DNA from: an uncultured Acidimicrobiales bacterium
GTDB taxonomy: Bacteria; Actinomycetota; Acidimicrobiia; Acidimicrobiales; VFJN01
Direction of reading: 5' to 3'
NCBI GenBank assembly: GCA_963735395.1
Contig: CAVTKV010000013.1
Location: forward strand, 23,861-87,860
DNA length: 64,000 nucleotides
Made by a program: the position numbers and the translations under genes. The notes beneath the pieces were generated by a model, which ran no database searches, was not told where the DNA came from, and saw only the letters and a list, made by a program, of their open reading frames with translations. Shown here one piece after another: positions 13,795-25,018 of this stretch; position 1 is the first letter of the stretch; every line of letters starts with the position of its first letter.

Positions 13795-15528
13795 CTAGGC
13801 GTGCTCGACATCCCTGGTCGGAGCCAACAGCACCGAGCAGTCGTCATGCGAGGCGGGCGCATCCGAGTCTGGGACCGTGGAGCCGGGCGGGAGGCCGTCG
13901 ACGAACGAGGGCGGCCTGGCGGGGTACCGGTTGAGGTAGCACGAGATGAGCCGGGCGAGCTGCCGTTGGCCTTGCGCGTTGGGATGGAACGTCGCCCCAT
14001 CGATCGGGTTCAGCAGTTGCAGCGCTGGCTTCACGGCGTAGGTGTACTGGCCTGAGTCGCCACACGGCTCGTGCCCGTTCCAGGCGGCTGCCGGTGAGAC
14101 GAAGTCGAGTCCCGCCTCGTGCGATACGCCATACAGCATGGTGTTGAGGTCGTTTGTGAGCGTCCGGAGGGTGTCGCGTTCGCCTTCGTCGACCTTGCGT
14201 AGCACGCTCGCACAGTCCCGTTGGAGGGGATTGAGGGGTGCGCCGCCTGACGGGAAGAGGTACGGGTATCCGACGACGATGATTCGGGCGTTCGGGTACG
14301 TGTCGACGAGATTGTCGTAGACACGCTCCAAGTTGCCGGACAGGCCGTCCATCGCCGAGCGGGCCCAGACGGTGAGGTTCGCGGCGTCGGGAAGGTCGAT
14401 CGTGGTTCTCCCGACCTTGACGTCTGGGGGTTCGAAGGTCTCTTCGGCGCAATCCGTGTAGATGACGCACAGCTGCACGACCGCCGAGAAGACGACGTCG
14501 TTCCCGCCGACGGTGATGGTGACGAGGTCGACGTCGGGCTGGGGCGAGGGGTGGATCTGTGGCTCGTGGCCGCCGACGATGCCGAGGTCGACGTCGTGGG
14601 TCACAGCGCCCGAGCATGCACGAAACGTACGTTGCACCTCATGGCCGAACTCGAGCAGAAGCGGGTACGCCTCTGGCGAGCGATGGCAGCCGGGTTGCGG
14701 GCTGGGAAGGAAGGGCTTCAGCCCTTCGCCGGCCGAGTACGAGTCACCGAGCGCGACGTAGCTGTCGTAGCTCGACCCACGGATCGTCGGGATGGCGATG
14801 GGATCGTCGTCCTGATCGTTCTGGCGCCACGCCGCGAGCCCGCCCAGGACGAGCAGGGGCACCGTGGCCCCGATCGCCACCCCCCGCACGATGTCCAGCG
14901 CGATCGAGGCGCGGTTGGCGGCCGGGGCTTTGGTCAGATGCTCGGGTGATGCAGCAGCCCACATCAACGCCAGGAAGGACGCGAACGCGAGCACACAGAG
15001 CACGGAGTACAGGATCTGGTCGGGGGGATCGAGGGGCGCACGCCACACGAACCGGTCGATCTCGACGAGCAGCACGGAGAGCCAGCCGATGTTGATGAGC
15101 CATTTCAACCACGGCCACACCAGTGGGCCCGGCTTCGGGTCACCCATATGGGTCGCCAGTCGTCGAAGTTCGTCGTACAGCTGGAAGCAGAAGATGCCCA
15201 GGCACCCGTGCGCGGCGATGGCGAGCACCAGGAGCAGCGGGTTCCCCAAGGGAATGTCGAGGGCGACCCACACGACGATGAGCGCGCCGACCGACATCGC
15301 TCCCCACCAGCGCCCTGGCACAGCCCTGGCAAGCCCCCAGATCCAGGAGACGCCACGACTCTTGTGGGGGATCGGACGGGCCTGGCCATCCACGGGTGCT
15401 GTCGCCGTCGTGCCGTCCGGCTCGCCGCCCGCGTCGGGGTGAGCTTCGGTTCCCTCGTGCTGCTCTGTCGCGGCATATGGACTGTCGATCTGACTCGTCG
15501 GTTCGGTGCCCGCCATGTCATCGGTCAT
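13795..15528 (-). CDS. membrane-anchored SGNH/GDSL-family hydrolase (lipase/esterase)
   Basis: GDSYSAGEG (block I, catalytic Ser), a GGND block and a C-terminal DxxH-like region. The N-terminus has several TM helices. ATG at 15528 with a GGAGAGGAA RBS. Confidence 0.85.
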   Translation of the reverse strand: MTDDMAGTEPTSQIDSPYAATEQHEGTEAHPDAGGEPDGTTATAPVDGQARPIPHKSRGVSWIWGLARAVPGRWWGAMSVGALIVVWVALDIPLGNPLLLVLAIAAHGCLGIFCFQLYDELRRLATHMGDPKPGPLVWPWLKWLINIGWLSVLLVEIDRFVWRAPLDPPDQILYSVLCVLAFASFLALMWAAASPEHLTKAPAANRASIALDIVRGVAIGATVPLLVLGGLAAWRQNDQDDDPIAIPTIRGSSYDSYVALGDSYSAGEGLKPFLPSPQPGCHRSPEAYPLLLEFGHEVQRTFRACSGAVTHDVDLGIVGGHEPQIHPSPQPDVDLVTITVGGNDVVFSAVVQLCVIYTDCAEETFEPPDVKVGRTTIDLPDAANLTVWARSAMDGLSGNLERVYDNLVDTYPNARIIVVGYPYLFPSGGAPLNPLQRDCASVLRKVDEGERDTLRTLTNDLNTMLYGVSHEAGLDFVSPAAAWNGHEPCGDSGQYTYAVKPALQLLNPIDGATFHPNAQGQRQLARLISCYLNRYPARPPSFVDGLPPGSTVPDSDAPASHDDCSVLLAPTRDVEHA

Positions 15529-15712
15529 CGTGAACGTTCCTCTCCGATCCGCGAGCCGTGCCCCGCACGCAGAGCGGGGCGACGCCGCCCAGAAGGAGGC
15601 ACACGGGTCGGCAGGAGATACACGTGCGAGCGGATGACCGGGCGTCGTCACTGAGTAAACCGGCGCGCTGCCGAGTGGGATCACCCTGCCGGCCCTCCGT
15701 CGTGTCCGCGAA

Positions 15713-16604
15713 TCACGCGGTGCCGAGGACCCGTCCGATCTCGGCGGCGATCTCGTCGGGCGCTTCGAGGTCCACGAAGTGACCGACGTGCGGGAGCGGC
15801 CGCCACTCGACCTTGCAGCCCGCATCCCGACTGCTCTTCCTGGCCACCGGGGCAGGCAGGGCGCCGTCCTGCATCCCCCACAGCATCGTGACCGGGACGG
15901 TGACCGGTGTCTCGTAGATGCGGTAGAGCTCCCGGCGCCGCCCCGGCACCAGCAGTCTGGCGACGAAGGCGCGGTAGTAGTCGATCGGCCCGCGCAGGTC
16001 GGCGGCGTGCCGGAACCGGCCGACGATCTCGTCGACCAGCCGGCGGTCCATCGAGCCCGGCCGACCCTCCCGGACCGTGAACGACCACCGCAGGAACCTC
16101 CGGCCCAGGCGGGTCGTCAGCAGGAACTCGGGGAGCCAGGGGATCTGGAACGGCAGGACCCATGGGATGCGCAGCGGCTGCAGGTGATCGAACGTCAGCG
16201 CCGCCCGTACCAGGGTCTTCGTGTGGGTGCAGTTGATCACCACCAGCCCACTGATCAGGTCGGAGTAGCGGTGGGCGAAGATCCAGCCGAGGCCGCCACC
16301 CCAGTCGTGGGTGACGAGCAGGGGCCGGTCGAGGCCCAGCACCTCGATCAGCGCCTTGACGTCGTCGGTCAGCGTGATGACGTCGGATCGACCCTTCGGC
16401 GGCGTCCGTTCCGGGATAGCCGCGCAGCGTCGGTGCGACCACACGGCAGTCGTCCACCTGTTCCATGACCGCCCGCCAGCTCATCCACCCCTCGGGGAAG
16501 CCGTGCAGGCACAGGACCGTCGGCGCGGTCGCCGGCCCCGACGCCGCCACGTGGAAGGTGATGCCGTTCGCCTCCACCTGCCGGTGTTCGATCGCGTGCG
16601 TCAC
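15713..16604 (-). pseudogene. alpha/beta hydrolase (haloalkane dehalogenase/epoxide hydrolase-like), split by a 1-nt frameshift
   Basis: The N-terminal part (VTHAIEHRQVEANGITFHVAASG...LCLHGFPEGWMSWR...RGYPGTDA) is in one frame. The continuation (...PKGRSDVITLTDDVKALIEVLGLDRPLLVTHDWGGG...) is in another. The shift is near 16385-16400 (gacgccgcc). Confidence 0.7.
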
Positions 16605-16754
16605 TACACCACCGAGGCGCGCGGGAGTGCCGCGGATACAAACGTCCGGCGGCAACGGTCTGGTCGGCCGTCACGCCAGATCATGTATTCGTGATGGCGG
16701 CTCGGGCTCTGTACCCACGAGGACGTCCCCACCGGTACGCCCGGCACCCGTCTG

Positions 16755-17138
16755 ATGGGAGGGCTCGTGCTCAGTCGTCGCAGCGCACGCCACGGGTTGT
16801 CGGTCGTCCGGATCGTCAACGGAACGCTCGGACTCGTCGCACCCGCCCTGTTGATCAAGCGCCTGGACCCGGACCGGGAGCCGAGCCCCGCCGCCGTCTA
16901 CGCCTTCAGGCTGTTCGGCATCCGCACGCTGCTGCTCGGCATCGACCTGCTGGTACGGCCGGAGGCCGAGATCCGTCGCGCCCTGCGCGAGGGGGTCGTC
17001 ATCCATGGCAGCGACGTGGCCACCGTCGTGCTGCTCGGGCTCCGGCACAAGATCCCGCACCGCACCGCCGTCGTGACGGCGCTCATCTCGGGCACCAACG
17101 TCGCCCTGGCCCTGACCGGCATGGAGCCGGAGCCGTGA
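16755..17138 (+). CDS. small integral membrane protein (first gene of the coupled heme-enzyme operon)
   Basis: 127 aa with 3-4 hydrophobic helices. Its TGA stop at 17136-17138 overlaps the GTG start of the peroxidase gene at 17135-17137. Confidence 0.6.
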   Translation: MGGLVLSRRSARHGLSVVRIVNGTLGLVAPALLIKRLDPDREPSPAAVYAFRLFGIRTLLLGIDLLVRPEAEIRRALREGVVIHGSDVATVVLLGLRHKIPHRTAVVTALISGTNVALALTGMEPEP

Positions 17139-18946
17139 GCGCGGCCCACCGTGCGACCCCGTTCTGGCGGGCCTACACCGCTCTGGCCGAGCGCGTCGAC
17201 CACGCGGTCGGGTGGGACCGGCTGCCCACGCCGCTCGGGTTGCTCACCCTCATCGGACTGCGGACCAAGCTGCGCCAGCAGAACCTCGTCGACACCACGG
17301 CCCTGCCGGCCGTCGACGTCCCGCCGGTCGGGGCGCCGGGCCCGCGCCACGTGACGAGCCGCGCCCCGGACGGTTCCTACAACGATCTGGAGTCGCCGGC
17401 CATGGGCCGCGCCGGGTCACGGTTCGGTAGGAACATCCCCCTCGACAGCATCGTGGACGTCACGGCCGACGAGGTGCTCACCCCCAGCCCCCGCGAGGTG
17501 AGCCGGGCGTTGATGACCCGGACCGAGTTCGTACCGGCCACGTCGGTCAACTCGCTGGTGGCGGCCTGGCTCCAGTTCATGATCCGCGACTGGTTCAGCC
17601 ACGGGACCAGCCCGGTCGACAACCCCTGGGTCGTGCCGCTCGCCGCCGACGATCCCTGGCCCGAGTCCCCGATGACGATCATGCGCACCCCCGAGGACCC
17701 AACGCGCCCGCCCGACGCCCGCGGCATGCCCCAGACCCGCGTCAACGTGCTCACGCACTGGTGGGACGGGTCGCAGGTGTACGGAACCGGTGCCGACGAA
17801 CAGCGGGCCTTGCGCAGCGGCACCGACGGCAAGCTGCGCGTCCGCGACGACGGGCAGCTGCCCCTGCCGACCGATCCCGACCACGACCCGTCCCGGGAGC
17901 CCGGGTTCTGGGTCGGCCTGCTCATGCTGCAGACGATCTTCGCGCTCGAGCACAACGCCATCTGCGACCACCTGCATGCGGCCTACCCGTCGTGGGACGA
18001 CGACGAGCTGTTCGAGCGGGCCCGGCTCGTCAACGCCGCGCTCATCGCCAAGATCCACACGGTCGAGTGGACGCCGGCGGTCATCAGCCACCCGACCACG
18101 AAGGCGGCGCTGCGGGCCAACTGGTTCGGCATCGCCGGCGAGCGCGTCCACCGGCTGTTCGGCCGCCTGTCTCGGGGCGAGGTGATCAGCGGCATCCCCG
18201 GCGGGGAGACCGACCACTACGGCGTGCCGTACAGCCTGACCGAGGAGTTCGTGGCCGTCTACCGGATGCACCCGCTCCTGCGCGACGACTGGCCGCTGCG
18301 CTCGGTGGCCGATGACGCCGTGCTCCAGGAGTGCACGTTCCGCGACCTGGCCGGGCCGCACGCGCTCGACGTCCTCGACAAGGTCTCCCTGACCGACCTC
18401 TTCTACTCGTTCGGCACGCTGCCCCCCGGGCTGGTCACGCTCTACAACTTCCCGAGGTTCCTCCAGGAGTTCGAACGCCCCGACGGTCACCTGCAGGACC
18501 TGGCGGCCACCGACATCCTGCGCACGCGCGAGCTGGGGGTGCCCCGCTACAACGAGTTCCGCCGGCTGCTCCACCTCGAGCCGGCCTCGGACTTCGAGAC
18601 GTTGACGGACAACCCGGGCTGGGCCGCGGAGATGCGCCGTGTCTACGACGGCGACGTCGAGCGGGTCGACCTCAGCATCGGCATGTTCGCGGAGCGCCGC
18701 CCCGAGGGCTTCGCCTTCAGCGACACAGCCTTCCGGGTCTTCATCCTGATGGCGTCGCGTCGCCTCAACAGCGATCGCTTCTTCACCGAGTACTACACCC
18801 CCGCCGTCTACACCCAGCAGGGGCTCGACTGGATCGACGACAACTCGATGGCGACCGTCCTGCTGCGCCACTACCCCCAGCTGCGGAGCTCGATGGCGGC
18901 GGCGGTCAACGCCTTCTCGCCGTGGACGCCTGCGGGCAGCGCGTGA
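17135..18946 (+). CDS. animal-type heme peroxidase / cyclooxygenase-like fatty-acid dioxygenase family protein
   Basis: About 603 aa matching the An_peroxidase fold: ...FMIRDWFSHG..., ...ALEHNAICDHL..., ...RLVNAALIAKIHTVEWTPAV..., ...LRTRELGVPRYNEFRR.... Confidence 0.9.
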   Translation: MSAAHRATPFWRAYTALAERVDHAVGWDRLPTPLGLLTLIGLRTKLRQQNLVDTTALPAVDVPPVGAPGPRHVTSRAPDGSYNDLESPAMGRAGSRFGRNIPLDSIVDVTADEVLTPSPREVSRALMTRTEFVPATSVNSLVAAWLQFMIRDWFSHGTSPVDNPWVVPLAADDPWPESPMTIMRTPEDPTRPPDARGMPQTRVNVLTHWWDGSQVYGTGADEQRALRSGTDGKLRVRDDGQLPLPTDPDHDPSREPGFWVGLLMLQTIFALEHNAICDHLHAAYPSWDDDELFERARLVNAALIAKIHTVEWTPAVISHPTTKAALRANWFGIAGERVHRLFGRLSRGEVISGIPGGETDHYGVPYSLTEEFVAVYRMHPLLRDDWPLRSVADDAVLQECTFRDLAGPHALDVLDKVSLTDLFYSFGTLPPGLVTLYNFPRFLQEFERPDGHLQDLAATDILRTRELGVPRYNEFRRLLHLEPASDFETLTDNPGWAAEMRRVYDGDVERVDLSIGMFAERRPEGFAFSDTAFRVFILMASRRLNSDRFFTEYYTPAVYTQQGLDWIDDNSMATVLLRHYPQLRSSMAAAVNAFSPWTPAGSA

Positions 18947-18964
18947 CCGCCGAAGGAGACACCC

Positions 18965-19402
18965 GTGATCGACTCTGACCAGATGATCTCGATGCGCCAG
19001 GACGACCTCGACGAGCTGTTCCGGTCCAGCCCGCCCGGCGACATCCCCCGGGGCAGGGGCCGGGGGACCGTGGTCTTCGCGCCGCATACCCTCGTCGGGC
19101 GCATCGCGGCGAAGCTGGCTTACCTCCTCGCCTGGAGGGGCAAAGTGTTCAACCCGCAGCGGAGCGACCTGCGCAACCTGATCTCGCCATTTGGTCTCCG
19201 CCTGATCCGGGCCCGCGTCTACGAGCAGGCCAGCTGGCTCGACGGCAGGCCGTGCATCGTCCTCGACTACTCGAAGACGTCGTTGGTGGCCAAGAAGATC
19301 CGGGACGAGATCCGCGAGGTCGGCGATGGTGTCTACCTCGGGTTGGTGTTCTGGGGCAGCCGCCTCGTCCTCAAGTTCACGCTCGAGTTCCCCCGGTCGT
19401 GA
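18965..19402 (+). CDS. hypothetical protein, GXWXG/DUF4334-like
   Basis: GTG start preceded by GAAGGAGA. The C-terminal ...IVLDYSKTSLVAKKIRDEIREVGDGVYLGLVFWGSRLVLKFTLE resembles DUF4334 (...YDhqPIiDhFR...lG...fFvL.R). Confidence 0.6.
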   Translation: MIDSDQMISMRQDDLDELFRSSPPGDIPRGRGRGTVVFAPHTLVGRIAAKLAYLLAWRGKVFNPQRSDLRNLISPFGLRLIRARVYEQASWLDGRPCIVLDYSKTSLVAKKIRDEIREVGDGVYLGLVFWGSRLVLKFTLEFPRS

Positions 19403-19415
19403 GGACCGGCGCAAC

Positions 19416-20678
19416 GTGGCTCCACAACAGGCGGTGACCGTCGTGGCCGAGGTCCGGCCGGGGGAGGCCGAGGCGCTGACGTCGGACCTGGAAGCGATCG
19501 ACAAGGACGATCGCCGGCGCGACCTGCTCCCGTTCGAGGATCTCCCCGTCCACTTCGCCCGGTTCGTGGTCGTCGACGAGTCGATCGATCCCGAGGGGCG
19601 AACGATCCCTGCCCAGCTGCTCTTCCTGAGCGACATCGACGGCCCGCTGCGGACCTACCTGAGCCGCCTGGTCGACGCGGCGGGGGAGGGGCTCGATGAG
19701 ATCTACCGGCACTGCGTGGGCTATCCCGCCGTCCCCACGGTGAGGGACCGGAAGCAGTACCTCAAGCGACACATGGCCCGGGCCGCGGCCGCGTACATCA
19801 ACACCGTGGGCCGATCGGTGGAACAGGTGCGCCACGACGCGGAGGTGCGCCACGCGATCGACGACTTCCTCGACGACCACGACTGGGCGGGGCAGAGCCC
19901 GGCCGCCGTTCGGGCGGCGGTCCAGGAGTTCGTCGGTTCCAAGCCATCCCTGCGGGCCTCGCTGCGGCCCGCGCCGCGACCGAGCCTGTGGTGGCGAGTA
20001 AAGGAGGGCGCCCACCTGGTCGCAACCGTCGCCGTCCTGGTCGCCCTCCTGCCGGTCCTGCTCGCGGTCGTGCCCGTGTGGCTCGTCGCCGTCCGCATCC
20101 AGGAGATCCGGGACGTGCCCGACACGCCGCCCCCCGACCCCGCCCACGCCGACCGTCTGGCCGGGGCCGAAGGGCACCTGGTGCAGAACCAGTTCAGCGC
20201 CGTCGGCTTCGTCAAGCCCGGGTGGCTGCGCCGGACGACCGTCTCGACGGTTCTGTGGGCGGTGAACCTCTCGTCCCGGCACGTCTTCAACCACGGGAAC
20301 CTGGCCGGCATCCGCACCATCCACTTCGCTCGGTGGATCTTCCTCGACGGCAAGCGCCGGGTGATCTTCGCCAGCAACTACGACGGTTCGCTCGAGAGCT
20401 ACATGGACGACTTCATCGACAAGGTGGCGTGGGGGCTCAACGCCGCGTTCAGCAACGGCCGCGGTTACCCCCGGACGCGGTGGCTGGTGCTCGGCGGCGC
20501 CAGAGACGAGCCCGCCTTCAAGAACTTCCTGCGCAACCACCAGATCCCGACCCAGATCTGGTACTCGGCCTACGGCGACCTCACCGCGGTCAACGCCGCC
20601 GGCAACGCAGCCATCCGGGACGGTCTCCACGGCACGATGACCGCCCGGCAGCTCGACGAGTGGGTGGCGCGGCTGTGA
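19416..20678 (+). CDS. hypothetical membrane-anchored protein with an internally duplicated 'HFAR(F/W)' domain
   Basis: Two halves each carry ...(V/I)HFAR(F/W)(V/I)(V/F)(V/L)D... (LPVHFARFVVVDE and IRTIHFARWIFLDG), separated by a TM helix (HLVATVAVLVALLPVLLAVVPVWLVAV). The TGA stop overlaps the GTG start of the DyP gene. Confidence 0.7.
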   Translation: MAPQQAVTVVAEVRPGEAEALTSDLEAIDKDDRRRDLLPFEDLPVHFARFVVVDESIDPEGRTIPAQLLFLSDIDGPLRTYLSRLVDAAGEGLDEIYRHCVGYPAVPTVRDRKQYLKRHMARAAAAYINTVGRSVEQVRHDAEVRHAIDDFLDDHDWAGQSPAAVRAAVQEFVGSKPSLRASLRPAPRPSLWWRVKEGAHLVATVAVLVALLPVLLAVVPVWLVAVRIQEIRDVPDTPPPDPAHADRLAGAEGHLVQNQFSAVGFVKPGWLRRTTVSTVLWAVNLSSRHVFNHGNLAGIRTIHFARWIFLDGKRRVIFASNYDGSLESYMDDFIDKVAWGLNAAFSNGRGYPRTRWLVLGGARDEPAFKNFLRNHQIPTQIWYSAYGDLTAVNAAGNAAIRDGLHGTMTARQLDEWVARL

Positions 20679-22078
20679 CCGCCCCGACCCTCGAGCTCGA
20701 CGACATCCAGGGCATCGTCGCCGCCGGGTACGCCCACCTTCCCTCGGCCTGCTTCGTGCTCCTCCGCGTCGAACCCGATGCGGACGGCCGGGCGCGGGAG
20801 GCCAAGGCGTGGCTTGCCCGGGTGGCCGAGCGCGTGACGACGGCACGGCAACGCCAGGACCGGCAGAGCACGAACGTGGCGCTCACCCACCACGGCCTGA
20901 TCGCCCTCGGCCTCGACCCCGAGGCGGCCGGCTCGTTCGCCGCCGAGTTCGTCGACGGCATGACCGCACCCCACCGCAGCCGCTGGCTCGGGGACACCGG
21001 CGAAAGCGCGCCGACCAACTGGCGCTGGGGTGGGCACGGCAACCCGGTCGTCGACGTCGTCCTCCTGCTCTACGCCGCCGACGACGAGTCGCTCGAGGAG
21101 CTGCACCGGTTGCACGTCTCGGACCTCGGCGCGAGCCGGCTGGTCGAGGTGGCGCGGCTCGGCACCAGCGCGCTCGGTCCCACCGAGCCGTTCGGGTTCG
21201 CCGACGGGATCGCACAACCGGTCGTCGACGGCCTCGGGGCGACCGGGCCGGCGGCCGACACGGTGCAGCCCGGCGAGTTCATCCTCGGCTACCGCAACGA
21301 GTACGGCCTGACCCCGGTGTCGCCGACCGTCGCCGACGCCGACGACCCCGGCGGCGTCCTGGCCCCGGCGCCGGGCGAGGGCCGCCGTGATCTCGGACGC
21401 AATGGCACCTACCTGGTCTTCCGGGAGCTCCGTCAGGACACCGAGGGCTTCCGGGCGTTCCTCGACGAATCGACGCGCCGCCCCGACGGAAGCAGTGATC
21501 CCGCGGCGGCCACGCGATTGGCGGCCAAGATGGTCGGCCGCTGGCCCAGCGGCGCCCCGCTGGTACTCGCCCCCCACGCCGACGACCCGGCCCTCGGACG
21601 GGCCAACGACTTCGGCTACTTCCACGTCGACCGCGACGGCTTGCGCTGCCCCGTCGGCGCCCACATCCGCCGCGCCAACCCCCGCGACTCCCTCGACCCC
21701 GACCCGGGCTCGGCCGCCTCGATCGCCGTCGGGAAGCGGCACCGGATCATCCGCCGGGGGCGCGAGCGTGGGCCCAACGGCACCCCCGGCGCCGCAGAAC
21801 CGGCTGATCGGGGGCTGCACTTCGTCTGCCTGAACGCCAACCTTGCGCGGCAGTTCGAGTTCATCCAGGGCACCTGGTGCAACAACCCGAAGTTCGCCGG
21901 GCTCTACGAGGACCGTGATCCGCTCGTGACGACCGAGCCGGACCAGACCTTCCGGGTGCCGGGCCGTCCGGTCCGCACCCGCTACACCGGCATCCCCAGC
22001 TTCGTGCGGGTCGTCGGGGGCGCCTACTTCTTCTTGCCCGGCGTCAGGGCGCTGCGTTTCCTGGCCGGGCGTGCATGA
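20675..22078 (+). CDS. DyP-type (dye-decolorizing) heme peroxidase
   Basis: N-terminal LELDDIQGIVAAGY hallmark, GFADGIAQP (GxxDG) and proximal-His region GAHIRRANPRD. The GTG at 20675 overlaps the upstream stop (GTGA). Confidence 0.9.
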   Translation: MTAPTLELDDIQGIVAAGYAHLPSACFVLLRVEPDADGRAREAKAWLARVAERVTTARQRQDRQSTNVALTHHGLIALGLDPEAAGSFAAEFVDGMTAPHRSRWLGDTGESAPTNWRWGGHGNPVVDVVLLLYAADDESLEELHRLHVSDLGASRLVEVARLGTSALGPTEPFGFADGIAQPVVDGLGATGPAADTVQPGEFILGYRNEYGLTPVSPTVADADDPGGVLAPAPGEGRRDLGRNGTYLVFRELRQDTEGFRAFLDESTRRPDGSSDPAAATRLAAKMVGRWPSGAPLVLAPHADDPALGRANDFGYFHVDRDGLRCPVGAHIRRANPRDSLDPDPGSAASIAVGKRHRIIRRGRERGPNGTPGAAEPADRGLHFVCLNANLARQFEFIQGTWCNNPKFAGLYEDRDPLVTTEPDQTFRVPGRPVRTRYTGIPSFVRVVGGAYFFLPGVRALRFLAGRA

Positions 22079-23256
22079 CGGCGGCCCGCCGGCTCAACGA
22101 CCTGCTCGTGGCCCTCATCAACGCCGAACGGCGGGTCGACCCCTACATCCGCCCGACGTTCGATCGGCTGTTCCGGCGGCGGGTGGCCAACGGGGTGCAG
22201 CGGCTCATCGTGGCCCGGCGCACCCACGACGACGCCCTCCTGGGTGAGGAGACGCTCCTCCCCGACGAGGCCGAGATCACCGCTGCCATCATCGAGGCCA
22301 TGTCGGCGTTCACCCACCGGACCTACGACCACGCCCTGCCGGCGCAACGGGCGGGCAACACGAAGACCTACGGCGTCGTTCGGGCCGACGTCGAGGTGTC
22401 GCCGGACCTCCCGGCCGACCTCCGCCATGGCCTGTTCGCCGCGCCCCGCCTGTTCCCGGCCTGGGTGCGGTTCGCGGGGCCCGGCCCGCTGGCGCCGGCC
22501 GACCTCAAGGACAACGGCGTCCTCAGCATCGGGGTCAAGGTCATGGGCGTCCCCGGACCGAAGCTGCTTGACGACGAGCAGTGGACGCAGGACCTCACCG
22601 GCATCAGCGCCCCCACCTTCACCACCCCGACAGTCGCCGAGAACGTCAAGCTGCAACGCCGCATCGGCGACGGCACGCCGATCCTCTACTTCCTGCACCC
22701 GGGCGACTCGCACGTGCTCGACGGGCTCATGCAGGGTCTGTACGCCAAGACGCAGACCAACCCCCTGTACGAGCAGTACTGGAGCTGCTCGTCCTACCGG
22801 CTGGGCGACCGGCAGGCGATCCATTACTCGATCAGGCCCCGCCGGGTGGTCCGCACCCGGATGCCCCGCCGCCCGTCGGACGACTACCTGCGTGAGGCCA
22901 TGGTCGCCACCCTCGCCCGCACCGCCGTCGACTTCGACATCCTGGTCCAGCGGCAGACCGACGCCCGCCGGATGCCGATCGAGGACGACGGTGTCGAGTG
23001 GCCCGAGTCGTTGTCGCCGTGCGTTCCCGTCGCCACGCTGCACGTTCCCGCGCAGCGATTCGACTCCGACCGCCAGCTGGCCTTCGCCGGCAACCTGTCG
23101 TACAACCCCTGGCACTCGCTCACGGCACATCGCCCGTTGGGCAGCCAGAACCGCGCCCGCCGCGCCATCTACCTCCAGCTCTCGGGGCTGCGGCAGCGCA
23201 TGAGCGGGACACCCCACGTCGAGCCCACCGGCGACGAGTCCTTCGACGACGGGTAG
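22075..23256 (+). CDS. catalase-related heme protein (small catalase family / allene-oxide-synthase-like)
   Basis: Catalase core-like segments (YGVVRADVEV..., VRFAGPGPLAPADLKDNGVLSIGVKVMG...). The ATG at 22075 overlaps the DyP stop (ATGA). Confidence 0.7.
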   Translation: MTAARRLNDLLVALINAERRVDPYIRPTFDRLFRRRVANGVQRLIVARRTHDDALLGEETLLPDEAEITAAIIEAMSAFTHRTYDHALPAQRAGNTKTYGVVRADVEVSPDLPADLRHGLFAAPRLFPAWVRFAGPGPLAPADLKDNGVLSIGVKVMGVPGPKLLDDEQWTQDLTGISAPTFTTPTVAENVKLQRRIGDGTPILYFLHPGDSHVLDGLMQGLYAKTQTNPLYEQYWSCSSYRLGDRQAIHYSIRPRRVVRTRMPRRPSDDYLREAMVATLARTAVDFDILVQRQTDARRMPIEDDGVEWPESLSPCVPVATLHVPAQRFDSDRQLAFAGNLSYNPWHSLTAHRPLGSQNRARRAIYLQLSGLRQRMSGTPHVEPTGDESFDDG

Positions 23257-23521
23257 ATCAGGCCGGTACGTGCTGACATCAGGCCCGTACGCCGATCAGG
23301 ACGACGAGGCGCCCATAAGCTGCTCGGTTCGCTTGGCTTCCCTCGTCAGACGTATGAGACACCTGCCATGCCATAGGTGTGCCAAATGACGCTGTGTTGT
23401 CGTTCCTGATGGCACACGCTCCCGGGGATTGCTGAAGATCAGCAAGGTCACGGGGTTGACACTCCGGGGTTTGACAGCACCGTTTGCGATCCCGCATCCA
23501 GTGCGCGAGGAGGTGGACTGG

Positions 23522-25018
23522 ATGTTGGCCATCCGGCGGCTCATCGGTCGGATGCTCGCCGTAGCGCTGGTCACCGCGTCCACGCTCCTCGTTCCTGCCG
23601 CGGGGCAGACAAGCGCCGGCCCGACCCAGCGGTCGCCCGCACTGACACTCGAGCCCAGCGAAGGACCACCCGGCACACGGGTGACAGCTACTGGTGACGG
23701 ATACGACGACTGCTTCCCGACCGTCGACGACGTCGAGCTGACGGTGCCGGAGGGGCCTGGCCGGCTGTCGTTGTCGAAGCCGGCGACGCAACCGACACAG
23801 TCGACGAGCGGCGAGGTTTCCCTCACCTGGGACAGCAGGAGGCTCGCCACTGCTGTGATCGACGGTGGAACCTTTTCGGCGACCTTCCTGGCTCCCGACT
23901 CGGCGTCTCTCGACACCATCTATGTCGTCAGAGGGCAGTGCGCGGACGACGCGGATGTGGTGGCGTCCGCGGAGTTCAGCGTGATCCGTCCCGTGGAGGT
24001 GCCGGTCGTCGTCCCGAACCTCGTCGGAACGACGATCGGCGAGGCACACGCTGCCCTGGAGGACGCGGGGCTCGCACTCGGCCAGGCCTCGGGCACCGGC
24101 GACGTGATTCGGCGCCAGGACCCGACCGCTGGGACAGAGGTCTCGCCAGGCACAGCCATCGATGTCAGTTTGGCAACCGAGGAACCTGATCTCGTGGTCG
24201 TGCCCGACCTCGTGGACACCTCGTTGAACGACGCCCCGGGTGTTCTGGAGCCGTTAGGGCTCTTGCTCGGCAGCGTGTCGGGCGACGGCAAGGTGATCCG
24301 CAGCCAGAGCCCGCTTCCGGAAACCGAGGTTCGGCGGGGAACCGGCGTCGATGTCACCGTGGGATCATCGGCGCCGCGGTTGGTGACGGTTCCCGACGTG
24401 GTGGGCTCGAGCGTCGATGATGCTCCGGGCATCCTCGAGTCGACGGGTCTGGTGCTGGGCCAGGTTGCGGGCAGTGGCGACGTGATCCGCGGCCAGAACC
24501 CGGCCACAGGAGCCCGGGTTCCCAGAGGAAGCGCCGTCAATGTCACCGTGCAGGCCACGGTACCCCCGGAGCAACCAGTGGAAGTGCCCGACCTCGTCAA
24601 CGGCACGGTGGACGACGCGCGGGCTGCGCTGGAGGATGTCGGGCTCGCTCTCGGCAATGATTCCGGCAGCGGCAGAGCCGTGGAGCGTCAGGAGCCGGCC
24701 GCTGGAACTCTGGTCCCGGCGGGTACCGAAATCACGGTCACCCCGGCCACTGTCCCCGTTTCCGAGCGGACTCCGGTGTGGGTTGTCGCTGCGGCCCTGA
24801 TCCTGCTCGGCGCCGCGCTGTTGATCCCTCGTTCCGTTCGGGCGCGGCGGCGGCCGAGTTGGGTGCGCACGCATGTCCGAGTTGTCGCGCGAACCGGGCC
24901 CGCCAGAGATGTCAAGTTCACACAATCACTAGCCGATCCGTCGACGCCGACGTGTGTGGTGCGCCTCGAGCCCCACGCCGACGGCGGCAAACAGGTCCTC
25001 GTGGAGGTCGACCCATGA
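23522..25018 (+). CDS. secreted PASTA-domain protein (signal peptide, 4 PASTA repeats, C-terminal TM anchor)
   Basis: N-terminal signal peptide MLAIRRLIGRMLAVALVTASTLLVPAAG. Four roughly 70-aa repeats of the form VVPNLVGTTIGEAHAALEDAGLALGQ...G.V.RQ.P..G..V. C-terminal helix VWVVAAALILLGAALLI plus an RRR tail. RBS GAGGAGGTGG. Confidence 0.85.
   Translation: MLAIRRLIGRMLAVALVTASTLLVPAAGQTSAGPTQRSPALTLEPSEGPPGTRVTATGDGYDDCFPTVDDVELTVPEGPGRLSLSKPATQPTQSTSGEVSLTWDSRRLATAVIDGGTFSATFLAPDSASLDTIYVVRGQCADDADVVASAEFSVIRPVEVPVVVPNLVGTTIGEAHAALEDAGLALGQASGTGDVIRRQDPTAGTEVSPGTAIDVSLATEEPDLVVVPDLVDTSLNDAPGVLEPLGLLLGSVSGDGKVIRSQSPLPETEVRRGTGVDVTVGSSAPRLVTVPDVVGSSVDDAPGILESTGLVLGQVAGSGDVIRGQNPATGARVPRGSAVNVTVQATVPPEQPVEVPDLVNGTVDDARAALEDVGLALGNDSGSGRAVERQEPAAGTLVPAGTEITVTPATVPVSERTPVWVVAAALILLGAALLIPRSVRARRRPSWVRTHVRVVARTGPARDVKFTQSLADPSTPTCVVRLEPHADGGKQVLVEVDP

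Follow-up and report, generated by a model that had tools for sequence, protein, structure and literature searches.

Described Systems Related to the Cluster

In Nostoc punctiforme, a linoleate 10S-dioxygenase is encoded adjacent to a catalase-related 10S-hydroperoxide lyase, according to the passages in which PMC9579011 (reference 32) and PMC13049297 cite this pair (Brash et al. 2014). A comparable combination, as judged by description only, is found at positions 16755-23256 of a 64,000-nucleotide stretch of DNA from an uncultured Acidimicrobiales bacterium (the whole stretch is referred to as the window). In this block of six genes (g1 to g6, Table 1), the gene for a heme dioxygenase that belongs to the peroxidase-cyclooxygenase superfamily (g2) likewise accompanies that for a small catalase-fold hemoprotein (g6). 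In contrast to Nostoc, the dioxygenase is of the alpha-dioxygenase (alpha-DOX) type, the catalase-fold protein carries a distal Asn rather than a His, and both are set in a conserved unit with a DyP peroxidase (g5), an ABM-like membrane protein (g4), and g3, a unit that lives without the dioxygenase in approximately 45% of the loci compared. The block exemplifies a widespread bacterial cluster made up of a four-gene core (g3 to g6) and an exchangeable O2-activating module, represented here by g1 and g2. It is proposed, with a probability of roughly 40%, that the cluster encodes a pathway, associated with the membrane, in which fatty-acid or lipid hydroperoxides are both formed and transformed. 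The Nostoc precedent supports such a lipid-hydroperoxide logic by analogy; a pairing of this kind had been invoked in the preliminary description of the locus.

Several of the encoded proteins have characterized relatives. The folds closest to g6 are those of the coral allene oxide synthase (AOS)-lipoxygenase (1U5U, 3DY5) and the Mycobacterium avium mini-catalase MAP-2744c (3E4W/3E4Y), which have the proximal Arg/Tyr motif in common with g6. In contrast to these proteins, with which it shares 16-18% identity, g6 possesses an additional 88-residue N-terminus and no distal His. The domain order of the coral protein, catalase-like followed by oxygenase, recurs in a fusion protein from Rhizobium phaseoli described below. 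Likewise, g2 is related to the plant and cyanobacterial fatty-acid alpha-dioxygenases, which include OsaDOX (4KVJ), AtDOX1 (4HHR), CalDOX, and LepDOX (PMC8720084); it aligns from end to end with the plant enzymes and keeps their catalytic residues with the exception of the distal His157, which is replaced by Arg. Bacterial alpha-DOXs are known from five phyla, the distal His is partly conserved in the family, and two cyanobacterial alpha-DOXs turn fatty acids into aldehydes (PMC8720084). No gene-cluster context for bacterial alpha-DOXs is reported in the literature searched, including that study.

The closest solved relative of g5 is DrDyP from Deinococcus radiodurans (DR_A0145; 8RE2/8RE3), whose gene likewise lies beside a catalase-like gene, DR_A0146, the product of which was reported to lack catalase activity (PMC6300522). 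DR_A0146 is, by description only, a putative ortholog of g6, and the Deinococcus system differs from the present one in that a two-gene pair is reported, with no g3, g4, or dioxygenase described, and in that the g6 relative of Deinococcus gobiensis has Val-His rather than Asn at the distal position. A further relative is found in the subclass V4 DyPs, which consist of a P450, transmembrane regions, and a DyP, and which have been described as unexplored (PMC9719856). The V4 'transmembrane region' corresponds to an entire tandem domain of the g4 type, unrecognized as such in that study, and the V4 DyP domain is g5-like; the V4 proteins differ from the cluster in being single polypeptides with a P450 in place of the alpha-DOX or GMC oxidoreductase. 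For g4, the best structural matches are the polyketide-tailoring protein WhiE-ORFI (9LMN) and the polyketide decarboxylase AbxO (9LTX), which are likewise ABM/SchA-like tandem barrels with 11-14% identity to g4. In contrast to these proteins, g4 has an inserted hydrophobic hairpin and a repeated HFAR motif, and no polyketide synthase (PKS) genes are found nearby.

The single superfamilies are already known, as are heme dioxygenases paired with catalase-related proteins (Nostoc, coral AOS-lipoxygenase) and the adjacency of DrDyP and a catalase-like gene. In the literature searched, no description was found of the four-gene core or of how it is distributed, nor of the g3 and g4 families, the catalase-fold subfamily with Asn for His, the alternation of oxidase modules, or the identity of the V4 'transmembrane region'. 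A preliminary description of the window, made from the sequence before this analysis, had called the arrangement undescribed, and we likewise found no account of the cluster in that literature.

Conservation of a Four-Gene Core

The distribution of the cluster was analyzed by scanning a g6 alignment against one genome per GTDB species, which gave 314 relatives; the 80 best loci among them were retained (handles beginning with L refer to individual loci). The counts below refer to 53 loci, each from a different GTDB species and flanked on both sides by 8 kb or more, which were searched by tblastn with all six proteins. A gene was scored as present at an identity of at least 35% and a coverage of at least 50%, which undercounts the short, fast-evolving g1; many of the loci are from metagenome-assembled genomes. 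Alongside g6, homologs of g3, g4, and g5 are present in 51, 52, and 52 of the 53 loci, respectively, and all four core genes occur together in 50. The remaining two genes are less frequent (g2 in 29/53, g1 in 20/53), and all six genes are found in 19 loci. The reciprocal analysis of metagenome contigs anchored on g4 (flanks of at least 5 kb) agrees with these results: of 18 contigs, all contain g5, 16 contain g3, and 15 contain g6. The co-occurrence that the preliminary description had asked to be checked is therefore found in many genomes. Its notion of a six-gene unit stands insofar as the genes belong together, but the conserved unit is g3 to g6, and g1 and g2 constitute one of several alternative accessory modules.

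The core is spread over approximately ten phyla, and its carriers are mostly soil bacteria. Within the Actinomycetota and Chloroflexota, these include Acidimicrobiia, Streptomyces, Solirubrobacter, Gaiellales, Ktedonobacteria, and Thermomicrobiales; elsewhere, the core is found in Acidobacteriota, Paraburkholderia and other Pseudomonadota, Cyanobacteriota (Moorena, Waterburya), Bacteroidota, Methylomirabilota, Gemmatimonadota, and Binatia. The gene order varies among these carriers. The genes are arranged g1-g2-g3-g4-g5-g6 in the window, g3-g4-g5-g6-g1-g2 in Streptomyces, and g1-g4-g5-g2-g3-g6 in some soil contigs, and g6 is divergent from g5-g4-g3 in Proteobacteria and Acidobacteria, such that the sole invariant order is g4 followed by g5. 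That the core persists despite this rearrangement points to a functional link instead of synteny by descent, and the juxtaposition of the cluster genes is far beyond chance.

One full six-gene cluster (L015, contig DASPYG010000180.1) is binned as the archaeon 'Candidatus Nitrosopolaris'. Given the 48-61% identity of its proteins to bacterial ones, this cluster was likely either mis-binned or transferred recently.

Exchangeable Oxidase Modules

An oxidase module accompanies the core in 51 of the 53 loci. The alpha-DOX is the only oxidase in 28 loci, while in 19 loci a GMC flavoprotein and a di-heme cytochrome c are found instead of the alpha-DOX. A second, cholesterol-oxidase-like GMC type occurs alone in 3 loci and together with the alpha-DOX in 1, and the remaining 2 loci have neither module; a GMC oxidoreductase of either type is present in 23/53 loci. 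This near-exclusive alternation suggests that an O2-activating enzyme generates a hydroperoxide or H2O2 and that the core acts after this enzyme or in concert with it. The GMC protein is cytoplasmic and adjoins g3-g5, and its cytochrome partner of approximately 830 residues contains a signal peptide and two CxxCH motifs (L021, 14474-18979, minus strand, and 18 other loci). Beyond weak cytochrome c matches, no PDB or Pfam family was found for this partner, and BLASTP comparisons did not relate it to the cytochromes encoded near y4iL or near the R. phaseoli fusion (see below).

Judged by its sequence, g2 is a full-length fatty-acid alpha-dioxygenase homolog. The preliminary description had labeled this protein a cyclooxygenase-like heme peroxidase. 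Its membership of the heme peroxidase/dioxygenase family is clear (Pfam An_peroxidase, PF03098, E=9e-105), but the label has been revised to alpha-DOX-like because g2 matches the rice (4KVJ, E=5e-112) and Arabidopsis (4HHR, E=3e-109) enzymes over residues 25-598 and is much closer to these plant proteins than to cyclooxygenases (approximately 1e-15) or lactoperoxidase. The catalytic Tyr and proximal His are kept in the motif (A)VYRMH, corresponding to Tyr379 and His382 of the rice enzyme, the equivalent of His311 is found in AKIHTVEW, and the carboxylate site formed by Arg558 and Arg559 in the rice enzyme is found in ASRRLNSDRF. All of these residues are kept in each of the more than 40 g2 homologs retrieved. 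The distal His157 (QFMVHDW in rice) is replaced by Arg in g2 (QFMIRDW). Across loci L003-L080, this position is Arg or Lys in the clade of the window, Streptomyces, and Ktedonobacteria (Lys in some Streptomyces) and His in other clades.

The small protein encoded by g1 has one clear hydrophobic segment (residues 15-34) and other, weaker ones, and no match to g1 was found in Pfam or NCBIfam (E<=10) or in the PDB. Homologs of g1 (37-56% identity) adjoin g2 in actinobacterial and Chloroflexota loci. In some lineages g1 is replaced by an unrelated 225-residue protein with multiple transmembrane segments, the gene for which lies between g6 and g2 in four actinobacterial genomes (L007, 11208-11876; L013; L014; L017). 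In two proteins from metagenomes, P0099 and P0114, the same 225-residue domain forms a C-terminal extension of g6. A relationship between g1 and the transmembrane domain of P0099 was sought by hhalign, with a negative result.

The Catalase-Fold Protein g6

Homologs of g6 are labeled 'catalase family protein' by NCBI. No match to g6 itself was found in Pfam (including Catalase, PF00199) or NCBIfam at E<=10, nor among PDB sequences using phmmer. Comparison of the g6 profile with PDB sequences gave 1U5U and 3E4W as the sole matches, both weak. An AlphaFold2 model of g6 was compared with known folds; it was built from 40 homologs and has a predicted local distance difference test (pLDDT) score of 90. 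Foldseek places the model closest to the 33-kDa catalase-related protein of M. avium (3E4Y, E=1.4e-13) and the coral allene oxide synthase (1U5U, E=1.5e-13), each with a probability of 1.0, with the true catalases behind at approximately 1e-9. The catalase-fold chanoclavine synthase 9JDC is also among the matches. The additional N-terminus of g6 is helical in the model.

The proximal RxxxY motif of g6 (R362/Y366) is invariant in 40 orthologs and in the y4iL-type paralogs of this protein, which are found on plasmids and are 35% (y4iL of pNGR234a) or 28-33% (others) identical to g6. This assignment is supported by an hhalign comparison of the g6 profile with the single sequence of Escherichia coli HPII, which gave a short proximal-side alignment upstream of R411/Y415. 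Because the HPII alignment covered just this short part, the distal site was mapped from the alignment with the y4iL-type relatives together with the predicted model. In this alignment, the invariant Asn95 of the g6 orthologs (RAGNTK) is found at the position of the His in y4iL (QHFK), the R. phaseoli fusion (FHAK), and the D. gobiensis relative (VHSK), and the position of the distal Asn of catalases is occupied by Ser178 in g6. The distal dyad is reportedly Val-His in catalases and Thr-His in the hydroperoxide-transforming members of the family, a distinction said to have been drawn by Mashhadi, Newcomer and Brash in 2016. In contrast to g6, y4iL and the R. phaseoli fusion match PF00199, although weakly.

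Based on its sequence and model, g6 is probably a Tyr-ligated protein with a catalase fold that is without the acid-base His of catalases and of the characterized hydroperoxide-transforming relatives. The mean column identity of the g6 family is 61%, and many polar residues on the presumed distal side are invariant. The earlier view of g6 as catalase-related and AOS-like is borne out by the fold (3E4Y and 1U5U at approximately 1e-13) but not by the PF00199 sequence profile, and, since the distal His is gone, 'AOS-like' is to be understood as a statement about the fold and not about the chemistry.

The Core Proteins g5, g4, and g3

The identification of g5 as a DyP peroxidase in the preliminary description is upheld by a full-length match to DrDyP (8RE3, E=2e-57, phmmer), the nearest solved protein, and by the catalytic residues. 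The fungal D-type DyPs are next (E=1e-36). The match of g5 to TIGR01413 (E=2e-27) is slightly below the cut-off of this model (96.3 bits versus 100.5), and Pfam DyP_N is matched just at E=0.014. The Asp of GFADG, the Arg of IIRRG, and the His of GAHIRRANPRD in g5 align with D189, R348, and H324 of DrDyP, which are the distal Asp, distal Arg, and proximal His, respectively (PMC10820274).

The product of g4 had been described as a membrane-anchored protein with a duplicated HFAR domain and no nameable family, and each of these points is consistent with the present results. No match to g4 was found in Pfam (including ABM and SchA_CurD) or NCBIfam at E<=10 or among PDB sequences using phmmer; the model (pLDDT 85) predicts a tandem ferredoxin-like alpha+beta barrel, indicating an ABM/SchA-like fold. 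The halves are homologs of each other by hhalign (98.7% probability, E=4e-16), their invariant HFAR motifs align together, and both contain invariant His residues. Between the halves lies a 36-residue segment (197-232; Kyte-Doolittle 3.0) that is modeled as a helical hairpin and predicted to anchor the protein; with this topology, both halves would face the same membrane side. The possibility that g4 is a paralog of the DyP was ruled out by comparison.

The third core protein, g3, has no match in Pfam or NCBIfam at E<=10 and none among PDB sequences (phmmer). It had been likened to GXWXG/DUF4334 (PF14231/PF14232), which the profile scans do not bear out: when 30 homologs were scanned individually, GXWXG was touched by one (E=0.14) and DUF4334 by none, and neither g3 nor its long variants gave a match. 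The g3 homologs form at least 6912 clusters, all named 'hypothetical', and W57-x-G59-K60, D101-Y102, and R113-D114 are among the invariant residues. The long variants are g3-family proteins of approximately 280 residues with an N-terminal transmembrane anchor, found in the position of g3 directly upstream of g4 (L156, 2697-3701; L158, 7059-7919). No signal peptide or transmembrane segment was found in g2, g3, g5, or g6, and the DyP g5 is accordingly regarded as cytoplasmic.

Fusion Proteins and Paralog Contexts

Two components of the cluster are joined in a 942-residue protein encoded on the R. phaseoli plasmid pRphaN261c (L163, 5833-8658; WP_199287286.1). Its His-containing, catalase-like N-domain matches Pfam Catalase (E=1e-6) and g6 (tblastn, E=9e-16), and its alpha-DOX-like C-domain is 40% identical to g2 across the whole length (E=8e-136). 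No description of this fusion was found in the literature searched. A cytochrome c gene directly follows the fusion gene.

A different set of plasmid proteins (1443-1620 residues) combines a P450, a g4-like part, and a DyP. In the examples from Sulfitobacter (L165, 3694-8553) and Novosphingobium aromaticivorans pNL2 (L166, 3721-8049), hmmsearch identifies the g4-like part (E=2e-68 and 1.6e-65) and a g5-like DyP (E=1.4e-78 and 4.4e-110), and the g4-like part is complete, with the hydrophobic segment. The neighbors of the N. aromaticivorans fusion gene include genes for an acyl-CoA dehydrogenase and a MaoC dehydratase. Taken together, the three kinds of fusion, including that of g6 to the multi-transmembrane domain, provide independent links between g6 and g2, between g4 and g5, and between the system and the membrane.

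On pNGR234a (L164, 5917-11970), the catalase-like y4iL is lined up with three other genes, which encode a hypothetical protein, a di-heme cytochrome c peroxidase, and a patatin-like phospholipase. This row may represent a different lipid-peroxide module built around a His-containing g6 paralog, and the context of phospholipase and di-heme peroxidase points in the same direction as the Nostoc precedent.

Proposed Function and Alternative Explanations

From gene content, folds, conserved residues, co-occurrence, and fusions, we infer the catalytic steps of the pathway and the lipid nature of its substrate as follows. First, g2 would form a tyrosyl radical upon heme activation and oxygenate a free fatty acid next to the carboxylate to give the 2-hydroperoxide, as suggested by its conserved catalytic residues. 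Next, this hydroperoxide, or H2O2 in the GMC and P450 lineages, would be passed at the inner membrane face to both peroxide-reactive hemoproteins. Of these, g6 may isomerize, dehydrate, or cleave the hydroperoxide without the catalase His, a role that its fold and the fusion to an alpha-DOX point to. The strict adjacency of g4 and g5 and the fusions of g4-like and DyP parts suggest that g5, tethered at the membrane by g4, would use the peroxide to oxidize or reduce a lipophilic co-substrate that g4 or g3 would bind. Finally, the epoxide-hydrolase-like protein g7 (Table 1), where present, could open an epoxide product.

The preliminary description had already suggested a lipid-peroxide or oxylipin module. 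The catalase-like/alpha-DOX fusion and the recurring g7 fit this idea, while the loss of the distal His from g6 does not, and the latter is one of several points that weigh against the proposed pathway. An Asn occupies the distal site of g6, versus a His in all characterized hydroperoxide-transforming catalase relatives and in the y4iL-type paralogs of g6 itself, and the g6 family could have lost peroxide chemistry altogether. The core occurs without the alpha-DOX in approximately 45% of the loci; therefore, the link to fatty acids is not universal. Lipoxygenase, desaturase, and lipase genes are not conserved with the cluster in the loci compared, and g7 is found in just approximately 19% of loci and is broken in the window. 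In addition, neither a fold nor a family can be assigned to g1 and g3, the GMC variant includes a di-heme cytochrome c with a signal peptide, a feature absent from the core proteins, and DrDyP, a class C/V enzyme, shows no activity with H2O2 at pH 7.5 (PMC10820274). The loci analyzed are the 80 most similar of 314 relatives and of 547 hits and represent the closer contexts of the cluster.

A more specific version of the proposed pathway, which we put forward tentatively, is that the core constitutes a phylum-spanning, membrane-associated heme system of four components in which the His-less, Tyr-ligated g6 and a class-V DyP docked to the monotopic tandem-ABM protein g4 would carry out a new lipid hydroperoxide chemistry, with the peroxide supplied interchangeably by alpha-DOX, GMC, or P450 enzymes.

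Alternatively, the cluster may be a detoxification unit, in which the DyP and its catalase-fold partner remove H2O2 or the lipid hydroperoxides of the membrane, with a reductant supplied by membrane quinol or another lipophilic donor bound by g4, and the oxidases are the peroxide sources guarded against. We consider this explanation unlikely, although two peroxide-reactive heme folds are always paired in the cluster and loci in which H2O2-producing GMC flavoproteins accompany the core are as frequent as those without the alpha-DOX. The ABM fold includes quinol-oxidizing enzymes, and the membrane-embedded, ABM-like g4 would suit such a role. In Deinococcus, the DR_A0145/DR_A0146 pair has been discussed in terms of oxidative-stress defense (PMC6300522); however, the reported lack of catalase activity in DR_A0146, which is likened to g6 by description only, and the inactivity of DrDyP at pH 7.5 speak against scavenging. 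Furthermore, g6 is without the distal His and Asn that are needed for catalase turnover, and the dioxygenase, the epoxide hydrolase, and the P450 and alpha-DOX fusions look biosynthetic or catabolic rather than protective.

The tailoring or oxidative catabolism of aromatic, quinone-like, or humic/lignin-derived compounds, with g4 and g6 as cofactor-poor oxygenases or cyclases acting on polycyclic substrates, appears rather improbable. In fungi, class-V DyPs are supplied with H2O2 by GMC oxidases, and a similar supply would be consistent with the proximity of g5 to the C- and D-type DyPs, the GMC oxidoreductase as an accessory module in 23/53 loci, and the abundance of soil bacteria among the carriers. 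The resemblance of g4 to the polyketide-tailoring proteins WhiE-ORFI and AbxO and the presence of chanoclavine synthase 9JDC among the fold matches of g6 also suit this explanation. Against it, the surroundings contain no conserved genes for PKS, ring cleavage, or aromatic catabolism, the alpha-DOX module keeps the Arg pair that binds the fatty-acid carboxylate, and lignin itself is an unlikely substrate because g2, g3, g5, and g6 are without signal peptides and transmembrane segments.

A non-enzymatic role of g6 (and possibly g4 and g3) in heme handling or sensing for the DyP and the dioxygenase, with the cluster as a unit for heme-enzyme maturation or regulation, is highly unlikely: g6 keeps the proximal Tyr and has lost both distal catalytic residues, ABM-fold proteins include the heme-binding and heme-degrading IsdG, both halves of g4 contain invariant His residues, and three heme proteins are encoded in one operon, but the very high conservation of g6 (61%) with its invariant polar distal-side residues is typical of an enzyme, the catalase-like/alpha-DOX fusion mirrors known two-step catalytic fusions, and no heme-transport or heme-biosynthesis genes are conserved nearby.

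The physiological substrates of bacterial class-V DyPs (PMC10820274) and the roles of bacterial alpha-DOXs (PMC8720084) are open questions, and the cluster ties both enzymes to specific partners, among them three families without a Pfam model (g1, g3, and g4) and a catalase-fold subfamily with an Asn in place of the catalytic His. As the carriers include cultivable members of Streptomyces, Paraburkholderia, Solirubrobacter, and Reticulibacter, these questions are directly testable. If the cluster does form and transform lipid hydroperoxides, oxylipin-type metabolism would be extended to many soil phyla, and new heme chemistry with possible uses in biocatalysis (fatty aldehydes, hydroxy acids, epoxides) would be expected. 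If the four components do act as one heme system, the cluster would represent a bacterial oxylipin pathway without a characterized counterpart and provide a physiological role for C-type DyPs and bacterial alpha-DOXs.

Organization of the Locus and Flanking Genes

Table 1. Coordinates and features of the cluster genes and of the divergent gene g7 in the window.
Gene	Position	Strand	Length (residues)	Product	Remarks
g1	16755-17138	+	127	small hydrophobic protein	accompanies g2
g2	17135-18946	+	603	alpha-dioxygenase-like heme fatty-acid dioxygenase	overlaps g1 by GTGA
g3	18965-19402	+	145	soluble protein without assigned family	core component; GTG start
g4	19416-20678	+	420	tandem ABM/SchA-like alpha+beta barrel	core; central hydrophobic hairpin 197-232
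g5	20675-22078	+	467	class-V (C-type) DyP peroxidase	core; overlaps g4 by GTGA
g6	22075-23256	+	393	catalase-fold heme protein	core; overlaps g5 by ATGA
g7	15713-16607	-		epoxide-hydrolase-like alpha/beta hydrolase	divergent from g1; split over two frames

The G+C content of the window is approximately 70%. Open reading frame (ORF) calls on the plus strand confirm the six co-directional genes of the preliminary description, and the 4-nucleotide start/stop overlaps that it had named at 17135 (g1/g2), 20675 (g4/g5), and 22075 (g5/g6) are all read in the DNA. The statement that every junction overlaps does not hold, as this applies to three of the five junctions, with spacers of 18 and 13 nucleotides at the remaining ones. 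The former separates the g2 stop codon (18944-18946) from the GTG of g3 at 18965 and contains GAAGGAGA; the gap at this junction had been given as 2 nucleotides. The latter separates the end of g3 at 19402 from the GTG of g4 at 19416, the most probable start, which is backed by approximately 120 homologs of about 420 residues each that align from residue 1. A longer g4 ORF from the ATG at 19326 is unsupported by the homolog starts. A pattern scan found no sigma-70-like promoter or intrinsic terminator within the six-gene block, although such a scan carries little weight in a high-GC actinobacterium. From this layout, it is plausible that the six genes are co-transcribed and translationally coupled.

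The divergent gene g7 contains the HGXP motif (LHGFPEGW) and the Asp nucleophile motif HDWGG. A tblastn search with an intact homolog finds residues 7-69 in frame -1 (16407-16595) and residues 75-298 (approximate start) in frame -2 (15719 to approximately 16390). DNA alignment with the intact g7 of L001, a 93%-related Acidimicrobiales genome, reveals one extra base near 16400 in the window, and the resulting frameshift reflects either a pseudogene or a sequencing or assembly error. The intact L001 protein matches the epoxide hydrolases 5NG7 (E=9e-29) and 4NZZ (approximately 5e-27) and Pfam Abhydrolase_1, and haloalkane dehalogenases are also among the matches of g7, which is consequently designated epoxide-hydrolase-like, with the activity predicted. 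Intact homologs of g7 are found across phyla in 19 cluster loci, often directly beside g6, including those of Ktedonobacteria, Paraburkholderia, Acidobacteriota, Cyanobacteria, Binatia, and others.

The ORFs that flank the cluster and g7 were rejected as parts of the system, since neither has a counterpart in any related locus, L001 included. Just downstream of g7 and on the same strand, a 676-residue ORF (13795-15825, minus strand) contains a GDSL-like lipase/acylhydrolase domain (E=9e-16). On the other side, g6 is followed by a lower-GC spacer of approximately 170 bp and an ORF (23429-25018, plus strand) that, with no kinase or transpeptidase domain detected in its first 190 residues, contains four PASTA repeats (E=1e-42).

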